Positions 2,715 to 50,721 of a stretch of 64,000 nucleotides of DNA are shown one piece after another. The DNA comes from an uncultured Anaerolineaceae bacterium (lineage in GTDB: Bacteria; Chloroflexota; Anaerolineae; Anaerolineales; UBA4823): assembly GCA_964486825.1 (NCBI GenBank), contig CAZAQS010000001.1, positions 4,386 to 68,385 of the forward strand, read 5' to 3'. The position numbers and the translations under genes are program-made. A model generated the notes under the pieces. It was not told where the DNA came from, searched no databases, and worked only from the letters and a program-made list of their open reading frames with translations. Numbering within the stretch: the stretch's first letter is position 1; every line of letters starts with the position of its first letter.

Positions 2715-3785
2715 ATGAGTGATACTGCCTTACCACCTTCGAGCAAACAGATCCGGCTTACGAGCCTCTCGAACTGCGCGGGTTGAGCTTCTAAGCTAAA
2801 TGCGGAAACGCTGGTGCAGGTCCTGCGCCCACTTCAAGGAATCTTCAACCCTGAGGATTACCCCGACCTGTTGGTTGGCCTGGGGCATCCGGATGACGCT
2901 GCGGTTTGGAAGCTTGAGGAAGACCGGGCCTTGGTTGCAACCACCGATTTCTTCACACCCATCGTAGACAACCCGTACGATTATGGGGCCATCGCGGCCG
3001 CCAATTCCCTCTCAGATATCTATGCCATGGGTGGGCGTCCCTTCCTGGCATTAAATATTGCCGCGCTTCCCCCAGATCTGCCTGTCGAAATGGTCAGCGA
3101 AATCCTGCGTGGAGGAGCGGAAACTGCTCGCAAGGCCGGTGTGGTCATCGCTGGAGGCCATACGATACAGGATAAAGAACCGAAGTATGGCTTGATCGCG
3201 CTTGGTTTTATTGACCCTCGCGCAATGATGACCAAGGGTGGAGCCCGCCCTGGAGATGTCCTTGTACTGAGCAAGCCGCTTGGATTTGGCGTGACAACCA
3301 CCGCCCTAAAGGAAGGCAAAGCTGACCCGACCGATGTATCCGAGGCAGTTGGCTGGATGAAACAGTTGAACAGGACCGCCTCCGAGCTGGCCCTGGAGTT
3401 TGGTGTCCGGGGGGGAACGGATATCACAGGTTACAGCCTGCTAGGTCATGCTGCTGAGCTTGCGCAAGCCTCCCAGGTACGTTTACATTTCGCCTTCGGA
3501 AAAATCCCTTTTATTCGTGGAGCGCGAGGCTACGCCGAGGCCTGGACCTTCCCAGGCGGCGCCTCCGATAACCGGATGTATTTTGGAAGCGGAGTGAGCT
3601 TCGCAGCGGAAATCGAAGAAACGTCCCAGATGCTCCTGTTCGATCCCCAGACCAGCGGAGGGCTGCTGCTGTCCGTCCCATCCCAGGTCCTGGAACCCAT
3701 GCTGGACCGAGCAGCCCAATTAGGGCAGGTGCTGTGGCCCGTGGGTGAGGTGCTGGAAGGAGAGGGTATCGAGGTAACTATATAA
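2715..3785 (+). CDS. selD: selenide, water dikinase SelD, with in-frame TGA (2784-2786) read as selenocysteine
   Basis: The frame of ORF 2814..3785 stays open upstream through TGA 2784-2786 to ATG 2715, giving MSDTALPPSSKQIRLTSLSNCAG-U-ASKLNAETLVQVL. The TGA aligns with catalytic Cys17 of E. coli SelD (HGAGCGCK). The rest of the protein carries SelD hallmarks (TTDFFTPIVDNPYDYG, GGHTIQD, DPQTSGGLL). Confidence 0.85.
2813..2829 (+). promoter_or_regulatory. candidate bacterial SECIS hairpin for the selD UGA
   Basis: GGUGCAGGUCCUGCGCC starts 27 nt after the UGA. It has a 6-7 bp stem (GGUGCA(G)/(C)UGCGCC, one G-U pair) and an apical GGUC-type loop. The apex GCAGGUCCUGC closely resembles the E. 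coli fdhF SECIS apex GCAGGUCUGC. Confidence 0.55.
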
Positions 3786-3803
3786 CGGAAAAATGGAGGA
3801 AAT

Positions 3804-3947
3804 ATGGAAGTCGCAGGGCTCGGAATAATTATTGTTATCCTGATTGGCCTTGTGGGCATTGCCCTACCGCTGGTAGTGCTGGTAATGCTTTTTATGATCT
3901 ATAGCAAGCTCAATGATATAGAAAAATTGCTCTCACGGAGAGAGTAA
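3804..3947 (+). CDS. small (47 aa) single-pass membrane protein, unannotated
   Basis: The ORF is below the track cutoff. GGAGG lies 5 nt upstream of ATG 3804. Translation is MEVAGLGIIIVILIGLVGIALPLVVLVMLFMIYSKLNDIEKLLSRRE, one hydrophobic helix plus a charged tail. Confidence 0.4.
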   Translation: MEVAGLGIIIVILIGLVGIALPLVVLVMLFMIYSKLNDIEKLLSRRE

Positions 3948-38521: not shown

Positions 38522-39862
<1,341 letters not shown>

Positions 39863-39867
39863 ATGCC

Positions 39868-39901
39868 AGAGGCCGGTCAAACAAGACCGGCCTCTTTTTT
39901 G
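39868..39901 (+). terminator. intrinsic terminator after kamA
   Basis: AGAGGCCGGUC-aaacaa-GACCGGCCUCU forms an 11-bp perfect stem followed by UUUUUUGUGUG. Confidence 0.85.
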
Positions 39902-39959
39902 TGTGCTTTGATCAAGGTTTGGCTCGTATACTAATCTAAGAAACCTCGTTATTGCCCCC

Positions 39960-39987
39960 TTGACAGATTCCCACATCTCTTTATAAT
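39960..39987 (+). promoter_or_regulatory. consensus sigma-70-type promoter (TTGACA-N16-TATAAT)
   Basis: TTGACA at 39960-39965 and TATAAT at 39982-39987, both perfect hexamers. Confidence 0.7.
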
Positions 39988-40036
39988 TACTATCAACTTT
40001 ATCATAATTATTCATTCAAGGATTGGAGTAGTCCTG

Positions 40037-40072
40037 ATGAGAAAGTGCATGTGTCTGGGGCGGGGATTGTAG
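40037..40072 (+). CDS. candidate 11-aa leader peptide MRKCMCLGRGL (Cys-Met-Cys regulatory codons)
   Basis: GGAG at 40025-40028 lies 8 nt before ATG 40037. The codons are UGC 40046-48, AUG 40049-51 and UGU 40052-54, with stop UAG 40070-72. The ORF overlaps segment 1 of the attenuator. Confidence 0.55.
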   Translation: MRKCMCLGRGL

Positions 40073-40121
40073 CCACCTCGTCTCAGAAACATAATTCCTA
40101 GAACGGCCAACATTTGAGATT

Positions 40122-40188
40122 AGGTGGTTGTGACCCCGCTGAGCGGATCATGAGTCTCGCGTTGCGACTCGTCGTACCACCTTTTTTG
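40122..40188 (+). terminator. attenuator terminator (AGGUGGU...ACCACCU + U6) enclosing two small hairpins
   Basis: A 7-bp GC-rich closing stem is followed directly by UUUUUU. Inner hairpins are CCGC-uga-GCGG (40136-40146) and GAGUC...GACUC (40152-40170). Confidence 0.5.
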
Positions 40189-40280
40189 ATGCCTGTTGGT
40201 CGTTTCCATTTAAACAAATATCGCTTCCGAAGGAGTAAAACATACATGCACTACTCCTCTTTCAGAAAGGTAAAAAGCCT

Positions 40281-41243
40281 ATGAGCACCATGCTCGCCTT
40301 TCCAAACCTAGATGTATCTGCACCACCCACCAGCGGCCTAGAGGCTGCTGTAGGGAACACGCCTCTCCTGCCCCTACGCCGGATTGGGGCGCGCCTGTCT
40401 CCAGGCGTCAAGCTGCTGGCGAAGGCGGAATGGTTTAACCCGGGTGGTTCGGTAAAGGATCGCGCCGCCCTTTTCATCCTGCGAAAGGCCCAGGCTGATG
40501 GCCAGCTTCCGCCGGGCAGGCGCCTGTTGGACTCCACTTCCGGTAACATGGGCATCGCCTACGCTACCCTGTGCGCCGGTCTGGAAATCCCTGTCACCCT
40601 GACAATCCCAAGCAATGCCTCCGCTGAGCGTATGACCATCCTGCGTGCGCTTGGAGCAGAGCTGATCCTGACGGACCCGCTGGAAGGCTCGGATGGAGCA
40701 GCCCGAGTCGCCGCAAGGTTAGCCGGGGAGCGGCCGGAGCTTTACTTCTACGCCAACCAGTACGACAACCCGGCTTCCTGGTGGGCGCATTACTGCACTA
40801 CTGGCCCCGAGGTCGCCGGACAAGCCGGGGAAAGGATCAGCCATTTTATTGCCGGCCTGGGCACCTCCGGCACCCTGGTCGGAACGGGCCGTTATTTGAG
40901 GGAATTGAACCCCCACTTATCCATCATCGCCGTCCAACCGGATAGCTCTTTTCACGGTATGGAAGGCCTCAAGCATATCGAGTCATCGGCGCAACCAGGC
41001 ATCTTCCAACCATCTCTGGTTGATAGAACCATCCACGTTTCGACCGAGACAGCTTACGGAATGGTGCAGCGCCTGGCTCGGGAGGAAGGCTTGTTTGTGG
41101 GGATATCTTCCGGGGCGGCAGTCACCGCTGCACTGGAGACCGCTGGCGAACTGCAGGAAGGGGTGGTAGTGACTGTTCTCCCGGATGCCGGTTATAAATA
41201 CCTGAGCTCCAGGGGTTTATGGGAGACGGTACAGGATGCTTGA
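40281..41243 (+). CDS. cysM: PLP-dependent cysteine synthase, CysM-like (thiocarboxylate-dependent type inferred from context)
   Basis: 320 aa with GNTPLLPL, the NPGGSVKDR PLP-lysine motif, and GTSGT. It sits in an operon with a ThiS-like carrier, a JAMM protease and an E1-like enzyme. Confidence 0.8.
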   Translation: MSTMLAFPNLDVSAPPTSGLEAAVGNTPLLPLRRIGARLSPGVKLLAKAEWFNPGGSVKDRAALFILRKAQADGQLPPGRRLLDSTSGNMGIAYATLCAGLEIPVTLTIPSNASAERMTILRALGAELILTDPLEGSDGAARVAARLAGERPELYFYANQYDNPASWWAHYCTTGPEVAGQAGERISHFIAGLGTSGTLVGTGRYLRELNPHLSIIAVQPDSSFHGMEGLKHIESSAQPGIFQPSLVDRTIHVSTETAYGMVQRLAREEGLFVGISSGAAVTAALETAGELQEGVVVTVLPDAGYKYLSSRGLWETVQDA

Positions 41244-41694
41244 GATCGATACAACCCTCCTGGCTGAGATCCACCGCCACGGTGAAGCCGCCTATCCAGA
41301 GGAAGGCGCCGGCATGTTGCTCGGCAGCGCCGAGGGCGACCTCAAACGAGTGATGAAGCTTCTGGCGCTAAACAATGCCAGGGAAGATACTACCCGCCAC
41401 AACCGCTACCTGCTGACACCTGTGGACTACCTGCGGGGAGAACAAGAGGCTGCCCGGCAGGGATTGGACGTGATCGGTGTCTTCCATTCTCACCCAGACC
41501 ATCCCAACCGTCCCTCTGCTTTCGACCTGGAATGGGCTATGCCCTGGTTTTCTTATCTCATCACAAGCGTGCAGGGTGGCCGTTCGCTTGAAAGCCGCTC
41601 CTGGAAGCTATCTGATGACCGCTCGCAGTTTTTTGAAGAAGAAATCGTCCTGGTCCCTGAACCGGGCCAGATCCAAAAATCACAATCCACTTGA
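41236..41694 (+). CDS. mec: JAMM/MPN+ metalloprotease (Mec+-like)
   Basis: 152 aa with the E...HSHPDHPNRPSAFD JAMM motif. Its start overlaps the cysM stop. Confidence 0.8.
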   Translation: MLEIDTTLLAEIHRHGEAAYPEEGAGMLLGSAEGDLKRVMKLLALNNAREDTTRHNRYLLTPVDYLRGEQEAARQGLDVIGVFHSHPDHPNRPSAFDLEWAMPWFSYLITSVQGGRSLESRSWKLSDDRSQFFEEEIVLVPEPGQIQKSQST

Positions 41695-41705
41695 AGGAGA
41701 TCGAA

Positions 41706-41996
41706 ATGTCCCTCTATTTTGTACGTCACCAACATGCTGCAGAGTCCTGCCCAGCTCAAGATCCTGAGATGGGAGGCATGCTTCTGTCTCACCTAAGCCC
41801 GGCTAACGCCAGCAAATTCGGCGTGGATGTCCGTGGCGACGCTGTCCTGGACGGGCAGCACACCTTTGTCCTGATCTTAGAAGCAGACCACCGCGATCAG
41901 GTAGAAGATTTCATGCAACCTTTCAAACAAGCCGGCCCGGTGGAGATTCACCCGGCCTCCGAGTGCGAGACTGTGGTCGAACGGGCCGGGTGCTGA
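41706..41996 (+). CDS. small conserved-looking protein of unknown function embedded in the cysO operon
   Basis: 96 aa counted from ATG 41706, with GAAGGAG 6 nt upstream. Cysteines lie in AESCPA, SECE and the C-terminal GC. I recognise no family. Confidence 0.5.
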   Translation: MSLYFVRHQHAAESCPAQDPEMGGMLLSHLSPANASKFGVDVRGDAVLDGQHTFVLILEADHRDQVEDFMQPFKQAGPVEIHPASECETVVERAGC

Positions 41997-42015
41997 TACA
42001 ATTTATGCAAAACCT

Positions 42016-42303
42016 ATGACCATATTACGAGTACCTACACCTTTACGCCCCTATACGGCTGGAAAAAGCGAGATCGAGCTGCAAGGCACGACCGTCGCAG
42101 ATGCGATGGGCCATCTTATCGAGCTTTATCCTGCCCTCAAGCCTCACCTATATAACGGGTCGGGCGAGCTGCGCCCCTTCGTTAATTTGTTCCTGAATGA
42201 CGAAAATATCAAGGACCTGCATGGACTGGAGACGCCCATAGAAGAGTCTGATCGTCTCATGCTGATCCCCAGCATCGCCGGAGGAGGCCCGCATGCTTCC
42301 TAA
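42016..42303 (+). CDS. cysO: ThiS/MoaD-family sulfur carrier (CysO-like) with a C-terminal extension after the Gly-Gly
   Basis: 95 aa with a beta-grasp-like sequence ending ...PSIAGG-GPHAS. Confidence 0.75.
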   Translation: MTILRVPTPLRPYTAGKSEIELQGTTVADAMGHLIELYPALKPHLYNGSGELRPFVNLFLNDENIKDLHGLETPIEESDRLMLIPSIAGGGPHAS

Positions 42304-43447
42304 ACTCACGCACTCCGAGATCCACCGCTACTCCAGGCACCTGCTCATCCCCGAAGTCGGCTTGGAGGGCCAGAAAAAGCTTAAGGCTGCCTCTGTCCTG
42401 GTGATCGGGACGGGCGGCCTGGGCTCTCCGGTGGCCCTCTACCTGGCAGCCGCCGGTGTGGGCCGCATCGGCCTGGTTGATTACGATGTGGTGGACTTTT
42501 CGAACCTGCAGCGCCAGGTCATCCACGGCACCTCGAAACTGGGCGTTTTGAAAGTAGATTCGGCTCGTGAGCGCATGTTGGATTTGAACCCGGATATCAC
42601 TGTAGATGTCTACAACCAGCCCTTCACCTCCGAAAACGCCATACGCATTGCCAAGAGCTACGATATCCTGGTCGACGGGACGGACAACTTTCCCACCCGT
42701 TACCTGGTCAATGATGTATCTGTCCTGCTGGGAAAAGCCAATGTCTATGGCTCGATCTTCCGTTTTGACGGGCAGGTGAGCGTCTTTGACGCCCGCCGAG
42801 GGCCATGTTACCGCTGTCTTTTCCCCGAGCCGCCTCCACCGGGACTGGTGCCATCCTGTGCGGAAGGGGGAGTCTTAGGCGTCTTGCCGGGGACCATCGG
42901 CAGCCTACAAGCCAGTGAGGCTCTGAAGCTGATCCTGGAGATCGGCGAGCCCTTGATCGGCAAGCTGCTGCTTTACAATGCCCTGGATATGTCCTTCGAC
43001 TTCGTCAAGCTGCGCAAGAACCCGGCCTGCAAGATATGCGGTGAGAATCCCGAAATAAAAGAGCTGATCGACTACGAGGCCTTCTGCGGCGTGCCGGGGC
43101 ATGACCACGAAGAGGGCTCTGCCGGTGCGGGTTGGGATATCGGTGCGGTTGAGCTTTCCGAGCGACTGAAGAACAACGGCTCCATCCGCTTGATCGATGT
43201 GCGCGAGCCGCATGAACTAGAAATCTCCAATATTGAGGGGGCAGACCTGATCCCGCTGGGGCAGCTTGCGGGACGCCTTTCGGAGCTGGACAGCGCGCAA
43301 GAGATCGTCTTATTCTGCAAAAGTGGCACTCGCTCCACGCGCGCTCTGGAGCTGCTGGCCAGCGCCGGCTTCCGCAGGGTCAAGAATCTAAAGGGTGGCA
43401 TCAACGCCTGGGCAAAGGAAGTTGATCCAAGCCTGCCGATCTATTAA
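42293..43447 (+). CDS. moeZ: E1-like adenylyltransferase/sulfurtransferase with C-terminal rhodanese domain (MoeZ/MoeB type)
   Basis: 384 aa with HRYSRHLLIPEVGLEGQKKL, GTGGLGSP and CxxC pairs. The rhodanese domain has the active-site loop FCKSGTRS. Confidence 0.85.
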   Translation: MLPKLTHSEIHRYSRHLLIPEVGLEGQKKLKAASVLVIGTGGLGSPVALYLAAAGVGRIGLVDYDVVDFSNLQRQVIHGTSKLGVLKVDSARERMLDLNPDITVDVYNQPFTSENAIRIAKSYDILVDGTDNFPTRYLVNDVSVLLGKANVYGSIFRFDGQVSVFDARRGPCYRCLFPEPPPPGLVPSCAEGGVLGVLPGTIGSLQASEALKLILEIGEPLIGKLLLYNALDMSFDFVKLRKNPACKICGENPEIKELIDYEAFCGVPGHDHEEGSAGAGWDIGAVELSERLKNNGSIRLIDVREPHELEISNIEGADLIPLGQLAGRLSELDSAQEIVLFCKSGTRSTRALELLASAGFRRVKNLKGGINAWAKEVDPSLPIY

Positions 43448-43529: not shown

Positions 43530-44402
43530 ATGAGTACAACCGAAAACTGTAAGCGGCGGCTGCTCGCCGTCCTGGCCCATCCCGACGACGAATCCTTCGG
43601 GATGGGCGGTACTTTGGCCTTGTACGCCAAGCGGGGGGCAGAGGTGCACCTGGTTTGCGCCACGCGCGGAGAAGCCGGCATGATGGAACCGGAATACCTG
43701 GAGGGATTTTCTTCGGTGGCGGAGAAAAGAGAAACCGAGCTGCGTTGCGCAGCTCGAAAATTGGGCTTAAGTGGTGTGCACTTCCTGGATTACCGCGATT
43801 CTGGTATGCCCGGTTCACCAGACAACCAACATCCCATGGCCCTGGCTGCTGCTCCGCTAGAAGAAGTCTCCCTGCAAATCAGCCGCTTGATGCGCCGTTT
43901 GAAGCCCCAGGTCGTGCTTACCTTCGACCCGATCGGGGGATACCGGCACCCCGACCATATCGCCATTCATACTGCTACCCTGCAAGCTTTCGAAATGTCC
44001 GCCGACTCAGGCATCCATATCGACGGCTTACCCGCTCACCAGGCCCAGAAACTGTATTTTCACACCATCTCGCGCCGCTTCCTGAGGGCTGCTGTGCGCC
44101 TGATGCCGCTGTTCCGGGTGGATCCCTCTCGCTGGGGGAAAAACCAGGATATCGATCTAAAATCCCTGGTTGTAGAAGATTTTCCCACTCATGCCGTCAT
44201 CGACTTCAACAGCGTCCGGCAGTTAAAAGCCGAAGCCTCCGCTTGCCATGCCAGCCAGGGAGGCGCCGGGATGGCTCAAGGCATCTGGGGAGTCCTAATG
44301 CGTTTAGGGGGCAGCAAAGAGTATTATATGCGCGCCTTCCCCAAGCCGCAGGATGGCGCCAGAGAGCGGGACCTGTTCGAGGGAGTTCAGATCGAGCAGT
44401 AA
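43530..44402 (+). CDS. PIG-L family deacetylase (MshB/Mca/BshB-like)
   Basis: 290 aa with LLAVLAHPDDESFGMGGTLA and HPDH motifs. Confidence 0.7.
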   Translation: MSTTENCKRRLLAVLAHPDDESFGMGGTLALYAKRGAEVHLVCATRGEAGMMEPEYLEGFSSVAEKRETELRCAARKLGLSGVHFLDYRDSGMPGSPDNQHPMALAAAPLEEVSLQISRLMRRLKPQVVLTFDPIGGYRHPDHIAIHTATLQAFEMSADSGIHIDGLPAHQAQKLYFHTISRRFLRAAVRLMPLFRVDPSRWGKNQDIDLKSLVVEDFPTHAVIDFNSVRQLKAEASACHASQGGAGMAQGIWGVLMRLGGSKEYYMRAFPKPQDGARERDLFEGVQIEQ

Positions 44403-44436: not shown

Positions 44437-47400
44437 CTATCTCCTGTTTGCCACTTCAAATACCGTCCCGGCGCTGGTCCCCTGGACTTCAGGGAAGTAA
44501 AACTCCCAGGCACGGGCAGGCAGGACGCGGAATTCTCCCGGATGCGTGATCACGAGATCGTAAGTTAACGCGTAGGTACCTGCCGGCAGGTAAGTGGCCG
44601 ACCAGGCGATATGGTCAGCGTAGACTTGCGGGCCCTGGAAGTACCACCAACCCCAGCCATCATCGAAAGGCCGGCGGTAGTCATATAATGGCTGCGGCTG
44701 CGGCTCGGATTCCCACTCCAGGTCCGTATCCTGCCCCAACTGGGAGGTTTTCAAGCTCAGATCCAAGATCTCTGTACCCGCGGGAAGGTAATCCTCGACC
44801 ATTAAGTAGTAAACATCGTTGGGTAACACGAATGTCACCCGGGCGGTAACCACATCGCCCATCTCAGCTTCCTGGATAGGCTCACAATCTTTTAGAGGGC
44901 AGGTACGACTGTGCGGGTAATATGCCCGCGAAATTTCAAGGCCCCGGTTTAGGGGTGCCACATTTTCAGCTGGTCGATCCACCTGGAGGGAAGCCGTATA
45001 ATAAAGCCGCCCAATGCCTGCATCGCGACGGATATTCAAACCGTTCGGATCCCTGGGATACAGGGAGCTGAGCGGGATGCTGGCTGTCACCGAGTTGACC
45101 TCCGTACCACTCCCCCCGGACTGGCCGTTGGCAACCAAAGTTCCGTTCAAGACTGCCGAAAAGCCATAAGATCCGCCCAGCTCGCCGGTGCCTTTCATGA
45201 CTTCGATGGCAGCCATTAAGCTCCAGGCGGTCTCATAGGAATTGGACCAGCAACCGCCCGGTTGGCGGTGATCCATCAGGTAACGCAGCGCATCCGGAAG
45301 GATTTGGGCAGCCGGTTCACGCTGAGACAGGGCATACACGACCACCGCGCTATTGTAGATGGGGCTATTGAGATTTTCAAAGTCCTGCGATGCCATCTCC
45401 CAATGCGCTCCAGTGGCGGAGCGGATGGCGCTGGCTTGCAAATCAGAAAGCAGCGACTTGACTCGCTCATCGGATGGTGAAAGGCTATCGATCGACAGGG
45501 CCAGGAAGGCCTGCGCCCAGGGATTTAGCTGATCATGCCTCTCATATAGATCCGTTAGCCCTGGCAGGTCACCGTAACCCGCCAGCGCAAGTACGTAATG
45601 ACCAAAAGCCAGGCGGTCGAGCTGCCAGGTCGGGGTAGAAATATCAGGCGCAGTCATCTGGGCCTGCACGTATTCCACCGCCCGCTTGATGACCTCCTCG
45701 TCAACGACGATCCCATTCTGCCTGGCCCGGGCCAGCCCAAACAGGATATAAGTTGAGACGTAGGTTTCGCTCTGCCCCTTACCGATCCAGCTCCAGCCTC
45801 CATCCTGGTTCTGCCGGGCAACCAGGCGCGCCAGGCCCTGGTCTAGGTTGCGTTCGAGACGAGATTGCAACTCGGGCGCTTCTATGCCAAAGGTTTGTAG
45901 AGCCCGGTAGGTCTCCAGGTTGGGGAGGAAGCGCGAGATGATCTGCTCGTTGGTCTCGTAAGGGAAGCGTTCCAGCGCGCTTAGGCCGTTCAAAATGGCA
46001 GCTCCCAAGGATGGGGATAGCTCTATGTCGAACTTCCCACCAATTGGTTCGAAGGATCGCGGTAGGCTGACCAGCTCTAAGCGCTCGCCCTCGTTGTCCA
46101 GAATGCCGGATGTGGCGAATGTCATTGGAGACGTATAGCGCAGGATCGGGATGGAGCCGCCTGCCGGCCGAGCAGCGTCTTGCAAGCTCCCCGAAACCGC
46201 TGAAAATACCAGGCTAGCTGTTTCGGCCTCCAGCACCGTCCCCCACCAATCCAGCCTGGCCTGACCGCCTGGGGACACACCCACCACTTGCATGGAATGG
46301 GTCGGGTCATCCACCCGTACGCCTGTAGCTTGCAAGGAGACTTCCACCTCCAGTTCTGAGGCTGTGTTGTTATGCACGATGGCAGATAGCTGGACATGGT
46401 CATCCCGCACCAGGAAGCGCGGTGTAACCGGCCGGACCAAAAGCTGCTTGGTAGCTACGATATCGGCTGTCGCTTCTCCTACCAGTGTCGCTCCGCTCAG
46501 GCCGCGGGCCTGAACGCGCCAGGTGGTGAGCGTGTCTGGGAGCGCGAGCGTCACCTGGGCTTCCCCATTGGCATTGGTGATCAGGGTAGCGTTCCAGTAG
46601 GCCGTATCCGGGAACCTCTCTCGTACGACAGAAGGCAGCATACCCTCGCCCCCGCCGCCCCCTCCCCCACCCTCTCCTACCAAACCGCGCCGGTGCGCGT
46701 AAGCCGCCAGGCCAAGGCCGGTCCTGACCCCTAATGGACGCTCTCCATACAGGGCGGGCAGGATATCCGGTGAGTTGGGCTCAGCCAGGGACAGCACCGC
46801 TAAATCGACGACAGATAACGAGAACTCACCTTCGACCGGTTGACCAGCCTGGTCCGTCACCTGCAGCCCGATGGTCAGCTGCTCCCCGGGGCCAAGTGCA
46901 GGTGTTTCCGCCAGGTTAGTCCCGCGGTCAATATCCAGGAGTTCGACATTCAGCAATTTTCTGGACGGATCAATGCTCAGGTTCAGATACCCCTGCCTGA
47001 ATTCCGGCTTACCCTGATCATTCTCTCCCAGCAGAGTGACGGAGATATAGATATTGGGAATATGGCTTTCTTCTACCAGGAAGGTGTAATCCGAACCCGC
47101 TGCAGCTACCGTGATCAGCTCGTAGCGCAGCACTTCTTCTCGTTCCAGTGTCACCAGCGCCAACGTATCCATCCCCATCTCATTGGGGATAAAGACTGAG
47201 GCAGTCTCGCCTGGCGAATAGGATGGTTGGCTGGAAGTTAAATGCGTGCGCTGGTTGGGCAAATTCGGCCATAGGGTCGTCCCGGGCCCGCCCACCCACA
47301 GCAGCACCTCGCTCCTGGCGCCATCCCCATGGATGTCCAATTGGTATGTGCCGGCCTCTGGAGGGGTGAAAGCCACCCGCGCCAGGCCATCGCTACCGGT

Positions 47401-50400
47401 CTGGAAATCCGCGCTTCCTACCAGGGAATAACGTGGGATATATTCCGGAGGGAAATATGGCTGGTCGGCCTCCTGCCGTATCCAGGTCACTTTTTGGAAC
47501 TCAGCCCGCAAGGGTTTCGCACCAGCGGGAATCCCCTCCCAATCTGCTACCACCACCTCAAAACCAGCCTGCTGCTCCGCTCGAGCAGTCCAGGTATCTG
47601 GTTTTATACCGATGATGTAATCGGCAGGGTTAACCCGGGCGCTGGCGCGCGCACTGACCGGCAGGCCGCTTTCATCCATTAAAGTTACCTCCAGGGTCAA
47701 GCGGTAACGCTCTAAAGCGCTGATGAATTGACCCGCTTGCACCGGAACATCCAGAGCCAACCTCCCATCCCGCCCCAGCACGGCATCTCCCTGGGAAACC
47801 TGGAAGCCCAATGGATCAAACCCGAACATAAACAGGCGCAAATAGGGGCTGAGCCAGTCAGTGTTCACCGGCCCTACCTGGTAACCGGGGAGAGAATAGA
47901 ACTGTGGAGCAGCGTAGACCGCCCAATGGATCTCCTGGTTCGAAGCGGGGGCGTCAAAGAAGTAGCGAGCGTTCACCATGGCAGATAGCTTTTCATCCGC
48001 CAGGATCTCATCTTTTTCAAACGACACCTGCAAGTTGATCTCTGGTTTGCGATAATCGGCGACTTTGAACCAAATCGCCTCGTAATCATCCCCCAGGCGG
48101 TAGTCGCCAGGCTGCGCTTCTGGGAGAAGGGTATACTCACCGTGGGCCGTGCCATATGCAGATAGGGGCAGATCGATAGCCGCCAGCTCCTGGCCTATCC
48201 CGTCGTAAACACGCAGGGTCTTGGAGGCCTGGCTCGGGAGCGTGTAGCGTCCAGCCTGGCTATTGCGAGAAACCAAGCGGAAATATACTGTATCCCCGGG
48301 CCGGTAAATGGGGCGATCGGTGTACAGGTAGGTTGTTTCGTTGGAGGTGTTGTAATCCATCAACAAGCCAAAATCCCAGGGATTGATGCCGAAGCTCCAA
48401 TTGGAAAGCGCAATGCTGAAATCTGGCTCGCCGGGTTGGCCCAGGACGGCATAGGTGGATGAGTAAGCTTGAGACAGCGGTTCGATGGCTGAACGGTATA
48501 TCCCCTCCTGGTCTGTGATCCCGCGCGCAATCACAGCTCCATTCTCATCATATACAGTAACAGGCGCGCCGGCAACTGGGGCCTGGTCACGCAAATCTAC
48601 GGCCCAGACGAAAACATCGCTATTGCTGCTCTTATAGGTCAGGTGGATATCGCTGGAGACCAACAAATAAGGACCGCCGTAATAATTTGCCCGCTCGATA
48701 TTTGTTTTTACATAATAAATCCCCGGGGCGAGCGGCTGGTCGTTCTGCGTAAGGGATACCTCAACTGCCTGGCTACGATTGGGAGTTATGCTGACGGGCT
48801 GCGTTAAGCTGTACATAAGGCGGGGTTGGTAGGTCTGGCGAATATCCCAACCATTCGGCCCGAGCATCAACAGGAAGTCCTCCAAAGGCACGCTCCCTAC
48901 AGCTACCTGGAGGGAAGAAATATTTGTGGCCTGGGCTATCAGGCTGTTATCCTGAGGGGTCAAGAAGAGCACATCCGACCCGAGGGCAACTTGCAGATCC
49001 GGATCGAGAGGTGAGGTGCTGAATTCCAATATGTATGGCTCTCCCATACGCTCACCCCAGGCATCCTCCAAGCGCTCGGATATGGTCAGGCTGTAGCTTG
49101 TAGCAGGGGCAAAATTCCCCCACAACATCAGGACCCGCTCCTCCATCAGGTAAGCGGTGAGGTCTGGCACCCTTGGAGAGATTGATAAGTAGGGGAGCAG
49201 ATCTACATCTGGTAATTGAGCAGTGAAATGAAGGGTGACTCCATTGTAGACCTGGTTCACACCACCTTGCACCGGTTCGGTCTCGAGCACACCTAGCGCC
49301 GGAGAGGTGGTAAAGCTGGATTGAAAGTCCTGGCCTAGCTCGGTACCGCCTCTGGCTTGCGTGGCAGCCGGCAGCAGCGCCGTGAAGCGGGTAAAGCGCG
49401 GGAAAAGACGGGTAGGTGTATAAGTGAACTCGGTTAAGTCCTCATTCCAGTCCATCCGTCCAGGAACGGTTTCACCATCCGGCCCTAGAAGGGAGAAATT
49501 AGCTATTAGGCTGTCGCTGTCCATGGGCTGGTTGAAAACCATCCGGATTTCCTGTTCCAGGCGTACGGCATTTGAAAATGGATCTGGTTCGATGGAAACC
49601 AGGCGCGGCTGCGCGGTCGTAAAAGACCAGGTAACAGGTTGGGCCGGGTCCTGCTCATCCCATCCTGAGAGCGGGCTGCCGTCCAAACCAGTAAGCTCCG
49701 GATTGAGACTTACCGTGTAGACCGTCCCGCCGGCCAGAGCTGGCTCGGGGTAGAAGATATAGGTGCTCGTGTTAACCCATTCTCCGTACCCGGCCGGCTC
49801 TGGGTCGCTGGGGGCGCTGATGCTGAAGGCGGTTAGAGGGTGGGCGCGCCCGTCAGTGGAAACAGCGCCCAGGGGAACTACAGGACGATTGAAGGAGGCC
49901 ACCACGGCGGAAGTAGGGTTGATGTCGATGGAGCCTGGTTCTGGCAAGGCTTGAGACAGCTCCAGGAAACCGACAGTTCGATAGGTAAGGGTGAGTGGAT
50001 TGAGCAGGCCCATACCTTTCTGAGAGCGGGCCGTAGAGCTAAGATTGATGGCCTGGAAGGTGGCCGGGGTGAAAGGCGAGTCGGGGGTAAAGGAGACGGC
50101 CGAATCGCTCTGCCAGTTGAAATGGCCGGATAAATACGGTTCCCCGCTCAAAGCCCCCTCCACGGAGGCAGTATCCATGGGCTGGTTAAAATATAGGGTG
50201 ATCGGCCCGTCAAGGGGCAATTCCGCTCCTGGTGGGGGATAGGCCTCGACCAGAGCGGGTGGAAGCGGCGTAGCTGGCGCTTTGGGTGCAGTGACCTCCG
50301 ATAACGTCTCACTGCTTGTATCCACCCCGGTAGGTGTAGGCGTTGGCGATCCCTGGAACACGCCTGGCAGGGAACAGGCCAGGGATACGATCAGCAGCAG

Positions 50401-50475
50401 GTTCAATACCGCCAGTAAGCTGAATCTCATGCTGCGCTGAGTCGGCGAGGTTTCTTCAGTTGGAATGGGTGACAT
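44437..50475 (-). CDS. bacterial alpha-2-macroglobulin family protein, thioester-less type
   Basis: About 2010 aa with a signal peptide (MRFSLLAVLNLLLIVSLAC), SbsA-type Ig domains, an MG-domain array, a bait-like region with Gly8 before RERFPDTAYW, and a TED-like domain. The thioester position reads FPYETNEQ where GC(G/L)EQ is expected. I prefer start ATG 50475, with GGAG 8 nt upstream. The ORF track extends to 50667. Confidence 0.8.
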   Translation of the reverse strand: MSPIPTEETSPTQRSMRFSLLAVLNLLLIVSLACSLPGVFQGSPTPTPTGVDTSSETLSEVTAPKAPATPLPPALVEAYPPPGAELPLDGPITLYFNQPMDTASVEGALSGEPYLSGHFNWQSDSAVSFTPDSPFTPATFQAINLSSTARSQKGMGLLNPLTLTYRTVGFLELSQALPEPGSIDINPTSAVVASFNRPVVPLGAVSTDGRAHPLTAFSISAPSDPEPAGYGEWVNTSTYIFYPEPALAGGTVYTVSLNPELTGLDGSPLSGWDEQDPAQPVTWSFTTAQPRLVSIEPDPFSNAVRLEQEIRMVFNQPMDSDSLIANFSLLGPDGETVPGRMDWNEDLTEFTYTPTRLFPRFTRFTALLPAATQARGGTELGQDFQSSFTTSPALGVLETEPVQGGVNQVYNGVTLHFTAQLPDVDLLPYLSISPRVPDLTAYLMEERVLMLWGNFAPATSYSLTISERLEDAWGERMGEPYILEFSTSPLDPDLQVALGSDVLFLTPQDNSLIAQATNISSLQVAVGSVPLEDFLLMLGPNGWDIRQTYQPRLMYSLTQPVSITPNRSQAVEVSLTQNDQPLAPGIYYVKTNIERANYYGGPYLLVSSDIHLTYKSSNSDVFVWAVDLRDQAPVAGAPVTVYDENGAVIARGITDQEGIYRSAIEPLSQAYSSTYAVLGQPGEPDFSIALSNWSFGINPWDFGLLMDYNTSNETTYLYTDRPIYRPGDTVYFRLVSRNSQAGRYTLPSQASKTLRVYDGIGQELAAIDLPLSAYGTAHGEYTLLPEAQPGDYRLGDDYEAIWFKVADYRKPEINLQVSFEKDEILADEKLSAMVNARYFFDAPASNQEIHWAVYAAPQFYSLPGYQVGPVNTDWLSPYLRLFMFGFDPLGFQVSQGDAVLGRDGRLALDVPVQAGQFISALERYRLTLEVTLMDESGLPVSARASARVNPADYIIGIKPDTWTARAEQQAGFEVVVADWEGIPAGAKPLRAEFQKVTWIRQEADQPYFPPEYIPRYSLVGSADFQTGSDGLARVAFTPPEAGTYQLDIHGDGARSEVLLWVGGPGTTLWPNLPNQRTHLTSSQPSYSPGETASVFIPNEMGMDTLALVTLEREEVLRYELITVAAAGSDYTFLVEESHIPNIYISVTLLGENDQGKPEFRQGYLNLSIDPSRKLLNVELLDIDRGTNLAETPALGPGEQLTIGLQVTDQAGQPVEGEFSLSVVDLAVLSLAEPNSPDILPALYGERPLGVRTGLGLAAYAHRRGLVGEGGGGGGGGEGMLPSVVRERFPDTAYWNATLITNANGEAQVTLALPDTLTTWRVQARGLSGATLVGEATADIVATKQLLVRPVTPRFLVRDDHVQLSAIVHNNTASELEVEVSLQATGVRVDDPTHSMQVVGVSPGGQARLDWWGTVLEAETASLVFSAVSGSLQDAARPAGGSIPILRYTSPMTFATSGILDNEGERLELVSLPRSFEPIGGKFDIELSPSLGAAILNGLSALERFPYETNEQIISRFLPNLETYRALQTFGIEAPELQSRLERNLDQGLARLVARQNQDGGWSWIGKGQSETYVSTYILFGLARARQNGIVVDEEVIKRAVEYVQAQMTAPDISTPTWQLDRLAFGHYVLALAGYGDLPGLTDLYERHDQLNPWAQAFLALSIDSLSPSDERVKSLLSDLQASAIRSATGAHWEMASQDFENLNSPIYNSAVVVYALSQREPAAQILPDALRYLMDHRQPGGCWSNSYETAWSLMAAIEVMKGTGELGGSYGFSAVLNGTLVANGQSGGSGTEVNSVTASIPLSSLYPRDPNGLNIRRDAGIGRLYYTASLQVDRPAENVAPLNRGLEISRAYYPHSRTCPLKDCEPIQEAEMGDVVTARVTFVLPNDVYYLMVEDYLPAGTEILDLSLKTSQLGQDTDLEWESEPQPQPLYDYRRPFDDGWGWWYFQGPQVYADHIAWSATYLPAGTYALTYDLVITHPGEFRVLPARAWEFYFPEVQGTSAGTVFEVANRR

Positions 50476-50721
50476 GGTACATCTCCACGCAAGGAGGGTA
50501 GGGTCTGGCCGGTGGTTTACTAAAAGGGGGAAACAGGGTTTCGTCGGTAATCGGTTGGCCATCAAGCACGACGGACCTGATACGCAAATCAAATATAAAC
50601 GCATTATACGTCGTTTCCAGTTCCTTGATAAGACGAAAAATGATGCATATATGTTCCTATTCAGCAAGTCTGGCGCTTCTCAAAGCCACCGATATGGCTT
50701 GATTTTGGTACAATACTTCCT

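Follow-up and report, generated by a model that had tools for sequence, protein, structure and literature searches.

The classical leader-peptide attenuators, described by the Yanofsky model, are those of Escherichia coli trp, his, phe, leu, thr and ilv (summarised in PMC4007540 and PMC2965389), and cysteine is a conspicuous gap among such terminator-type systems. Here, we analysed a stretch of 64,000 nucleotides (hereafter the window) from an uncultured Anaerolineaceae bacterium of the phylum Chloroflexota (contig CAZAQS010000001.1), in which a short open reading frame (ORF) with two cysteine codons lies in the leader of a cysM-mec-cysO-moeZ cysteine synthesis operon. Comparative analysis of the leader and its relatives indicates that it is likely to be a ribosome-mediated leader-peptide transcription attenuator that senses the supply of charged tRNA-Cys, and that it very probably controls this operon and, in related genomes, a small cysteine/sulfur regulon. 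The element is an undescribed RNA family, in which the classical mechanism would take a form not described before for cysteine or for Chloroflexota.

The closest described systems come from other lineages. For Actinobacteria, a 2005 study predicted short Cys-codon ORFs in front of cysteine-related genes; it found no terminators or conserved alternative hairpins and suggested Rho dependence (PMC1262725). In Mycobacterium smegmatis, leaderless polycysteine ORFs act as cysteine-responsive translational attenuators (Canestrari et al. 2020, bioRxiv 10.1101/834739; Mol Microbiol 114:93), and mycobacterial polycysteine ORFs are still described as translational attenuators in 2026 (PMC13236596). For cysS of Deinococcus deserti, a leaderless leader peptide of 10 aa with two Cys residues has been proposed as an attenuator (de Groot et al. 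2014, PMC4007540). The known cysteine cases, from Actinobacteria and Deinococcus, are leaderless, translational or without terminators. In Firmicutes, according to work of Grundy and Henkin as cited in PMC1262725 and PMC2965389, T-box elements (tRNA-Cys) and S-box/S-adenosylmethionine (SAM) riboswitches control cysteine and methionine genes. Full-text literature searches, of incomplete coverage, returned neither a cysteine attenuator that switches between terminator and antiterminator nor any cysteine attenuator from Chloroflexota. The original prediction, made from the window alone, had regarded leader attenuation for cysteine as unfamiliar; this was too broad, given the predictions in Actinobacteria and Deinococcus and the demonstration in M. 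smegmatis, and it stands for the terminator type in the literature searched.

The leader ORF and its relatives

Direct reading of positions 39700-40400 bore out the promoter, Shine-Dalgarno (SD) sequence, 11-codon ORF, competing helices and U-tract of the original prediction (Table 1), and Pfam matches to PALP, JAB, ThiS and ThiF plus rhodanese agreed with its assignment of the downstream genes to CysO-type cysteine synthesis. The -10 element ends at 39987, the SD lies at 40025-28 and the ATG at 40037, so the leader ORF is not leaderless; it is preceded by a 5' untranslated region (UTR) of ~40 nt within a whole leader of ~190-215 nt, and homologues share this layout.

A scan for CysM with one genome per species gave 80 loci, all in metagenome-assembled genomes (MAGs) of Chloroflexota. 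They mostly carry Anaerolineales or Anaerolineae labels (one is Limnocylindria), and their CysM identity is 61-77%. One of them, L002, comes from a MAG of Anaerolinea thermophila, a cultured species. With the window leader as query, nhmmer found matches upstream of cysM in ~70 of the 80 loci, with E-values down to 2e-31 and covering ~39956-40214. A covariance model (R1) built from 44 leaders found the element in 79 of the 80, the exception (L007) having only 47 nt of upstream sequence. In the window, the model matched a single copy (40043-40212, 100.8 bits), and neither it nor another scan of the window found a second one. Four of the loci have a second copy ~2 kb upstream of cysM (L077 1728-1888, L049 1770-1928, L044 1659-1810 and L051 1812-1966), in each case ahead of genes for a PALP enzyme and a serine acetyltransferase (cysK-cysE). 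Furthermore, a metagenome scan with the motif TGCNNNTGTNTGNGGCGGGGNNNGTAR, which is blind to the downstream genes, yielded 120 contigs, 113 of them with a complete leader. The gene next after the leader was CysM-like in 38 and CysK-like in 29; it encoded a tandem-rhodanese sulfurtransferase in ~10, and PALP plus CBS and DUF4395 in one each. Leaders ahead of genes other than cysM include those of L173, L150, L123, L168, L179 and L141; DUF4395 is a membrane protein. As the whole element is kept in ~180 independent sequences, it is not a product of chance, and as it also stands before cysK-cysE and sulfurtransferase genes, it is tied to cysteine rather than to one operon. The element appears to mark a cysteine/sulfur regulon.

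The original prediction hinged on orthologous leaders keeping the small ORF and its Cys codons, and they do. An automatic parse (TG[CT]-NNN-TGT followed by a GGCGGGG-like segment) succeeded for 77 of 81 sequences; the four exceptions comprise two truncated sequences, L027 with C-L-C and L043 with F-M-C. In L043 (3806-3960) the first Cys codon is TTC (Phe), a change that may be natural, leaving a single Cys, or may stem from an assembly error. The peptides share the consensus M-x(2-6)-C-x-C-[LM]-[GR]-R-G-x-stop, with N-terminal residues that vary in sequence and number. Within the 45 nt that precede the first Cys codon, the ATG closest to it shares the frame of the Cys codons in 70/70 genome loci; counting every ATG of this interval, 93 are in frame and 8 are not. 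In the metagenome set, the nearest ATG is in frame in 71/79; the search pattern excluded the start codon, which makes this count independent. The stop codon lies 24 nt after the first Cys codon in 70/77 homologues, and a GGAG/GAGG-type motif stands 4-11 nt before the in-frame start in 50/77, compared with 1 out of frame. On this comparative evidence the leader ORF is a real feature and is predicted to be translated.

The choice of Cys codons is frozen, the first being TGC in 75/77 homologues and the second TGT in 77/77, and the CGG/GGN codons of the ORF are invariant as well. The two Cys codons are never consecutive. One codon always separates them, and it is free to vary (ATG 29, ATC 17, TCC 13, TTG 6, ACG 5, and others). 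Possible pairing partners of the invariant Cys codons, checked by eye (the H1 arm AUGCG, and CAGAC in the segment called L below), show no covariation, and RNA pairing was dropped as the cause on these grounds. Codon-specific decoding speed is one possible reason for the frozen choice.

Competing helices and ribosome position

Three mutually exclusive helices can form from four segments of the leader. Helix 1:2 pairs 40054-65 with 40076-87 (12 bp, including 3 G-U), and as an isolated hairpin it folds at -21.4 kcal/mol (z -3.5). Helix 2:3 pairs 40071-87 with 40113-29 in 16 bp with one mismatch. Helix 3:4 pairs AGGUGGU (40122-28) with ACCACCU (40176-82) and is followed by a T6 tract ending at 40187; the cysM ATG (40281) lies 93 nt further on. 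Segment 1 also has an alternative partner, its GGCGGGG (40058-64) pairing with CCCCGC at 40134-39. In the minimum free energy fold, helix 2:3 is extended through GGCGGGG:CCCCGC into an antiterminator of ~27 bp (-37.9 kcal/mol, z -3.8). The extents that the original prediction gave for 1:2, 2:3 and 3:4 were therefore right as helices, and its antiterminator was too short. Equivalents of the two small hairpins within the terminator stem were predicted in an 83-sequence consensus, and these hairpins vary freely in sequence and length among homologues. A fourth, long-range helix, L:D, had been missed: L lies in the apical loop of the antiterminator and D six bases past the first U-tract.

Co-evolution of these helices was assessed in a sequence-only MAFFT alignment (A1), in which pairing was tested against partners slid by 1-3 columns and against 500 shuffles. 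In the terminator state (1:2, L:D and 3:4), 81% of positions were paired vs 34-63% when slid, 26 of 31 pairs changed on both sides, and 0/500 shuffles reached the observed values. In the antiterminator state (GGCGGGG:CCCCGC plus CCACCG:CGGUGG), 87.6% were paired vs 35-54% when slid, and 4 of 6 pairs of 2:3 showed compensatory change. Taken singly, helix 1:2 was 89% paired, with compensatory changes at 4 pairs. GGCGGGG:CCCCGC was 91.5% paired, and its covariation is uninformative as evidence since both sides are nearly invariant; compensated changes do occur in L017, L035 and L027. The GCAGGG of L017 is the one large change in segment 1, and both partners carry matching changes. That segment 1 is nearly invariant is consistent with its having two alternative partners while also coding for [G/R]-R-G.

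The homologues fall into two subfamilies with different registers of 3:4, AAGGACGG:CCGUCCUU vs AAGGGUGG:CCRCCCUU. Because the subfamilies are out of register in both the MAFFT and the covariance-model alignments, column counts understate 3:4 and 2:3, and for the same reason an alignment-free partner-swap test was added, which set the energy of the duplex that each segment forms with its native partner against that formed with the partner from another sequence (54 sequences, 5000 permutations). Own partners bound better than swapped ones for 1:2 (-16.0 vs -14.9 kcal/mol), 2:3 (-15.6 vs -12.6 kcal/mol), 3:4 (-12.2 vs -8.7 kcal/mol) and L:D (-19.9 vs -11.8 kcal/mol), with 0/5000 permutations as good in each case. 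Three control pairings and GGCGGGG:CCCCGC gave no signal in this test. The compensatory change foreseen for 1:2, 2:3 and 3:4 is thus found in all three.

The ORF and the helices are interlocked: the final base of UGU is also the first of segment 1, and the stop codon contains the start of segment 2. To relate ribosome position to folding, a ribosome footprint of 28 nt was placed codon by codon on 66 homologues, and P(terminator) was taken as the pairing probability of the five bases that precede the U-tract. P(terminator) was higher with the ribosome at the stop codon than at the first Cys codon in 63/66 homologues and than at the second in 59/66, in the direction that the masking logic of the original prediction calls for. 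In the window, it rose from 0.14 with the second Cys codon in the A site to 0.96-1.0 at the stop.

From these results we infer stalling, termination and their timing as follows. Transcription would start at the strong promoter, and a ribosome would load on the 11-codon ORF. With Cys-tRNA plentiful, the ribosome would reach the stop codon and cover segment 2; after its release, the 1:2 hairpin would recapture segment 2 and leave segment 3 free, and segment 3 would pair with segment 4, causing RNA polymerase to terminate at the U-tract at 40182-87. With Cys-tRNA scarce, the ribosome would stall with UGC or UGU in the A site and cover segment 1; segment 2 would then be free to pair with the emerging segment 3, and the polymerase would read into cysM.

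Helix L:D, points against attenuation and rival explanations

L:D is a 12-bp helix that practically every instance possesses; over 162 instances the median number of contiguous pairs is 12. RNAalifold selects it, all 14 of its pairs change on both sides, and its covariation is the strongest among the helices, with examples such as GGCUAAC/GUUAGCC, GCAGUCAAC/GUUGACUGC and GGCUGAUAG/CUAUCAGCC. Since G-U pairs are common and A-C mismatches are rare on the + strand, L:D is an RNA helix read on that strand. A palindrome acting at the DNA level is unlikely on the same grounds, and minus-strand matches of the covariance model reach only 22-26 bits. L:D encloses 3:4, and with the short A/G:U-rich stretch between them the two helices form an almost uninterrupted composite stem; the predicted energy of the domain 40100-40212 is -43.7 kcal/mol (z -4.85). 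Behind D comes a second U-rich run, with at least five T in the next 10 nt in 129/162 instances. The distance from D to the next start codon ranges from ~0 to 170 nt, and the run is kept independently of the distance to the next start or ribosome-binding site (RBS), whether 0 or 170 nt. L:D was also considered as a clamp on the RBS and was rejected, as the distance to the start codon varies over 0-170 nt while the U-run stays on D. The three-helix picture of the original prediction is therefore sound for the helices that it contained and incomplete in that L:D and the second U-rich run were overlooked.

Several observations weigh against attenuation of the classical kind. L:D and the second U-rich run have no role in the classical model. 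The terminator is non-canonical, since the 7-bp stem of 3:4 closes a branched interior of 47 nt with two small hairpins, and a simple scan for hairpin-plus-U terminators did not list 40122-40187, the loop being too long for it. Five loci (L039, L052, L059, L074 and L079) have no first U-tract: in L052 (~623-820) and L059 (~3724-3920) a hairpin insertion replaces it, and the other three are simply without it. All five retain 3:4, L:D and the second U-rich run. Furthermore, the ORF has only two Cys codons, which are not adjacent, and coding alone cannot account for their unvarying third positions. Finally, at equilibrium the terminator mostly wins even with the ribosome at the Cys codons (median P 0.76-0.81); P(terminator) there is below 0.5 in only 23/66 homologues, so that the equilibrium switch is clean in about one third. 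The ribosome-free leader prefers the antiterminator at equilibrium.

Given that equilibrium folding of most homologues yields the terminator even at the Cys codons, the switch must be kinetic. Because it is clean in only about one third of homologues at equilibrium, a test with truncated transcripts was adopted, in which the transcript is cut just before segment 4, a situation closer to co-transcriptional folding. The terminator arm of segment 3 was then sequestered with a median P of 0.85 without a ribosome or with one at the Cys codons, and this fell to a median P of 0.38 with the ribosome at the stop codon, the drop occurring in 61/61 sequences. As the naked RNA favours the antiterminator, termination would need translation to the stop codon or kinetic trapping of 1:2.

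The strongest of the rival explanations retains the sensing of Cys supply by ribosomes stalled at the Cys codons and changes the output, which would be translation initiation, processing or mRNA stability instead of termination at the first U-tract. One possibility is that the long (L+3):(4+D) duplex serves as a substrate of an RNase III-type enzyme or as a 5' stabiliser. Such an output would suit the branched terminator, the five loci without a first U-tract, and the fact that the best-supported helix, L:D, exists only in read-through RNA; the sole cysteine attenuator studied experimentally is, moreover, translational (bioRxiv 10.1101/834739). It fits poorly with the retention of a GC-rich 3:4 stem and a directly adjoining run of at least four T, which precedes D in 123/162 instances. 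A fixed geometry for masking the RBS is made unlikely by the variable distance between D and the start codon, and a non-exhaustive look found no conserved (anti-SD) pairing with the cysM RBS. On balance we regard an output other than termination as unlikely.

A second explanation places the sensor in the nascent peptide. The sequence C-x-C-[LM]-[GR]-R-G-x would be a TnaC-like arrest peptide sensing free cysteine or a thiol/redox signal, and a ribosome held at or near the stop codon would mask segment 2 for longer and so promote termination. The strongly conserved C-terminal sequence and the invariance of the Cys third positions and of the CGG/GGN codons are what such a peptide would show, and a ribosome at the stop codon is indeed the state that frees segment 3. 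The conserved codons after the second Cys codon are, however, segment 1 itself, whose two alternative partners suffice to explain their invariance, and a peptide of 10-12 residues is too short to occupy the whole exit tunnel. A likeness to known arrest motifs is not evident, no dedicated comparison having been made. Arrest by the peptide is accordingly a very unlikely basis for the element.

Still less probable is a ligand- or tRNA-binding riboswitch (T-box-like or for a metabolite), with the L:D-closed domain as aptamer and the ORF incidental. The length of the leader (~190-215 nt) and the closure by L:D of a conserved multi-helix domain, containing 3:4, the two hairpins and a nearly invariant GGUGG...GACCCCGC, would accord with an aptamer. 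An incidental ORF would hardly keep its ATGs in frame in 70/70 loci together with SDs and a fixed stop position; the invariant nucleotides are those in the competing helices, and the interior hairpins are free in sequence and length. In addition, a search of the whole window against Rfam 15 gave no family at gathering score, and at E<=10 the region 39850-40320 gave only spurious microRNA and small RNA matches, two of them falling on the terminator that belongs to the upstream gene. At that sensitivity, T-box and SAM models are excluded, and the match to a known riboswitch that would have spoken against the original prediction was not seen. Least probable of all, and hardly credible, is a co-transcribed functional C-x-C micropeptide for metal or thiol chemistry among ordinary mRNA hairpins, which would account for a C-x-C conserved at the amino-acid level with a varying middle residue and is at odds with the unconstrained N-terminal residues, with the overlap of the ORF with 1:2 and 2:3 in exact attenuator geometry, with a terminator-like stem and U-tract between the ORF and the enzyme genes, and with the covariation of all three mutually exclusive helices.

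Transcription attenuation by a leader peptide thus remains the preferred explanation, and it leaves unexplained L:D, the double U-run and the frozen choice of Cys codons. Tentatively, L:D may add an outer tier to the terminator, closing quickly only once 3:4 has formed and offering a second stop to polymerases that have passed the first U-tract, a proposal that we hold with some doubt. Alternatively, it may be a processing or stabilising duplex on the read-through mRNA. More speculatively, the whole might be a two-tier fail-safe device, made of L:D with its own U-run, or a composite duplex of ~30 bp that marks read-through mRNA for processing or stabilisation, to which the frozen UGC...UGU and the fixed R-G tail may contribute sensing by specific codons or by the nascent peptide. 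A single device of this kind would coordinate a cysteine/sulfur regulon across Anaerolineae; taken in full, this is a doubtful scheme.

The locus and its comparison with known systems

The features of the leader and the genes of the operon are collected in Table 1.

Table 1 Features of the cysteine leader and its putative target operon, in coordinates of the window.
Feature	Position	Strand	Remarks
Promoter	39960-39987	+	-35 TTGACA 39960-65, 16-nt spacer, -10 TATAAT 39982-87
Block right after -10 (TATCAAcTTtaTCATAAttATT)	39991-40012	+	Conserved with the leader
Shine-Dalgarno GGAG of leader ORF	40025-40028	+	From the sequence
Leader ORF MRKCMCLGRGL	40037-40072	+	Cys UGC 40046-48, Cys UGU 40052-54, stop UAG 40070-72
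Segment 1 (UCUGGGGCGGGG)	40054-40065	+	Inside the ORF, directly 3' of the Cys codons; pairs with segment 2 or CCCCGC
Segment 2	40071-40087	+	Starts within the stop codon; pairs with segment 1 or segment 3
L (GAACGGCCAACA)	40101-40112	+	5' arm of the long-range helix, in the apical loop of the antiterminator (between segments 2 and 3)
Segment 3 (UUUGAGAUUAGGUGGUU)	40113-40129	+	Pairs with segment 2, or via AGGUGGU 40122-28 with segment 4
CCCCGC	40134-40139	+	Partner of GGCGGGG, base of the long antiterminator hairpin; nearly invariant
Two small hairpins within the terminator stem	40136-40170	+	CCGC-UGA-GCGG 40136-46; GAGUC...GACUC 40152-70
Segment 4 and first U-tract	40176-40187	+	ACCACCU 40176-82, T6 40182-87; proposed attenuator terminator
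D (UGUUGGUCGUUU)	40194-40205	+	3' arm of the long-range helix, six bases past the first U-tract
Second U-rich run (UUUCCAUUUAA)	40203-40213	+	Directly after D; weaker in the window than in most relatives
Operon, putative target	40281-43447	+	Pfam scan, ORF list
cysM (PALP)	40281-41243	+	Pfam scan
mec (JAB)	41236-41694	+	Pfam scan
DUF3303-like ORF, 101 aa	41691-41996	+	Between mec and cysO; weak Pfam match
cysO (ThiS)	42016-42303	+	Pfam scan
moeZ (ThiF and rhodanese)	42293-43447	+	Pfam scan

In a promoter scan, the sigma-70-type promoter at 39960-39987 was perfect, with 12/12 consensus matches, and the pattern CTTGACAA...TAnAAT is kept in the same place in 158/173 distinct instances. The block right after the -10 element has the consensus TATCAAnTTnnTCATAAAnATT (158 instances), and both promoter and block belong to the conserved unit together with the leader. 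Together with the -10 element, the block shows weak dyad symmetry, with 46% complementary positions vs 30% in shuffles. One possibility for the block is an operator, bound by a protein regulator that would act in addition to the attenuator; another is a signal in the initial transcript or 5' UTR.

The upstream gene encodes a lysine-2,3-aminomutase-like radical SAM enzyme and has a canonical terminator of its own (39868-39895). In the window, an extra hairpin (GGAGUA...UACUCC, 40224-40266) with an SD-like GGAG inside separates D from the cysM start; it also gave a spurious mir-4766 match on the minus strand; most relatives are without this insert, and their RBS lies just 10-30 nt past D. Within the operon, the DUF3303-like ORF overlaps the end of mec by 4 nt and lies outside the textbook cysM-mec-cysO-moeZ set. 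A PIG-L-family deacetylase gene (43530-44402), which may be linked to low-molecular-weight thiol synthesis, adjoins the 3' end of moeZ, and beyond it a convergent ORF of 2076 aa occupies 44437-50667 on the minus strand.

The ~180 natural variants support the prediction of a complete trp-like Cys-codon switch in Chloroflexota, mostly in uncultured Anaerolineae, where regulation is barely known. They are also a natural data set on the co-evolution of competing helices, and the covariance model is ready for use. The predicted regulon (cysM-mec-cysO-moeZ, cysK-cysE, rhodaneses and CBS) could aid the annotation of metagenomes. L:D and the second U-rich run may reveal a tightening of attenuation that is absent from model systems.

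With T-box and S-box leaders, the element shares a choice between terminator and antiterminator ahead of sulfur-amino-acid genes, and the T-box also reads tRNA charging. These elements sense uncharged tRNA or SAM through RNA without a translated ORF, unlike the ORF-bearing leader described here. The Actinobacterial and Deinococcus cases likewise have short Cys-codon ORFs before cysteine-related genes, whereas neither has the helix set, L:D or the comparative depth found here; the Deinococcus case differs further in being leaderless, in preceding a tRNA synthetase gene and in coming from one genome. The mycobacterial polycysteine ORFs are close in logic. Small upstream Cys-codon ORFs precede several cysteine-metabolism operons (a 'ribulon'), and a ribosome paused at Cys codons remodels the downstream pairing and turns genes on, as is proposed here. 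Those ORFs are leaderless with consecutive Cys codons, whereas the present ORF has an SD, a ~40-nt 5' UTR and C-x-C, and so it is neither leaderless nor endowed with at least two consecutive Cys codons, the marks of the mycobacterial class. Furthermore, the mycobacterial case that has been studied unmasks a downstream RBS without an intrinsic terminator, whereas here a stem and a U-tract follow.

The attenuators of the E. coli type come nearest in architecture. Unlike them, the element here concerns cysteine and Chloroflexota, its codons are split by a free codon, its terminator stem is branched, L:D brackets the terminator and a second U-run follows, and its sequence bears no similarity to theirs; its ribosome-free RNA favours the antiterminator at equilibrium, in contrast to that of the E. 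coli trp leader. Four hallmarks of trp/his-type attenuators are present, namely an ORF, codons for the cognate amino acid, three mutually exclusive helices and the geometry for masking; the putative intrinsic terminator matches its counterpart only in part. As in the E. coli type, a promoter-proximal, SD-led mini-ORF carries codons for the end product, helices 1:2, 2:3 and 3:4 overlap, a U-tract follows 3:4 ahead of the first biosynthetic gene, and the stall site masks segment 1 while the stop codon masks segment 2.

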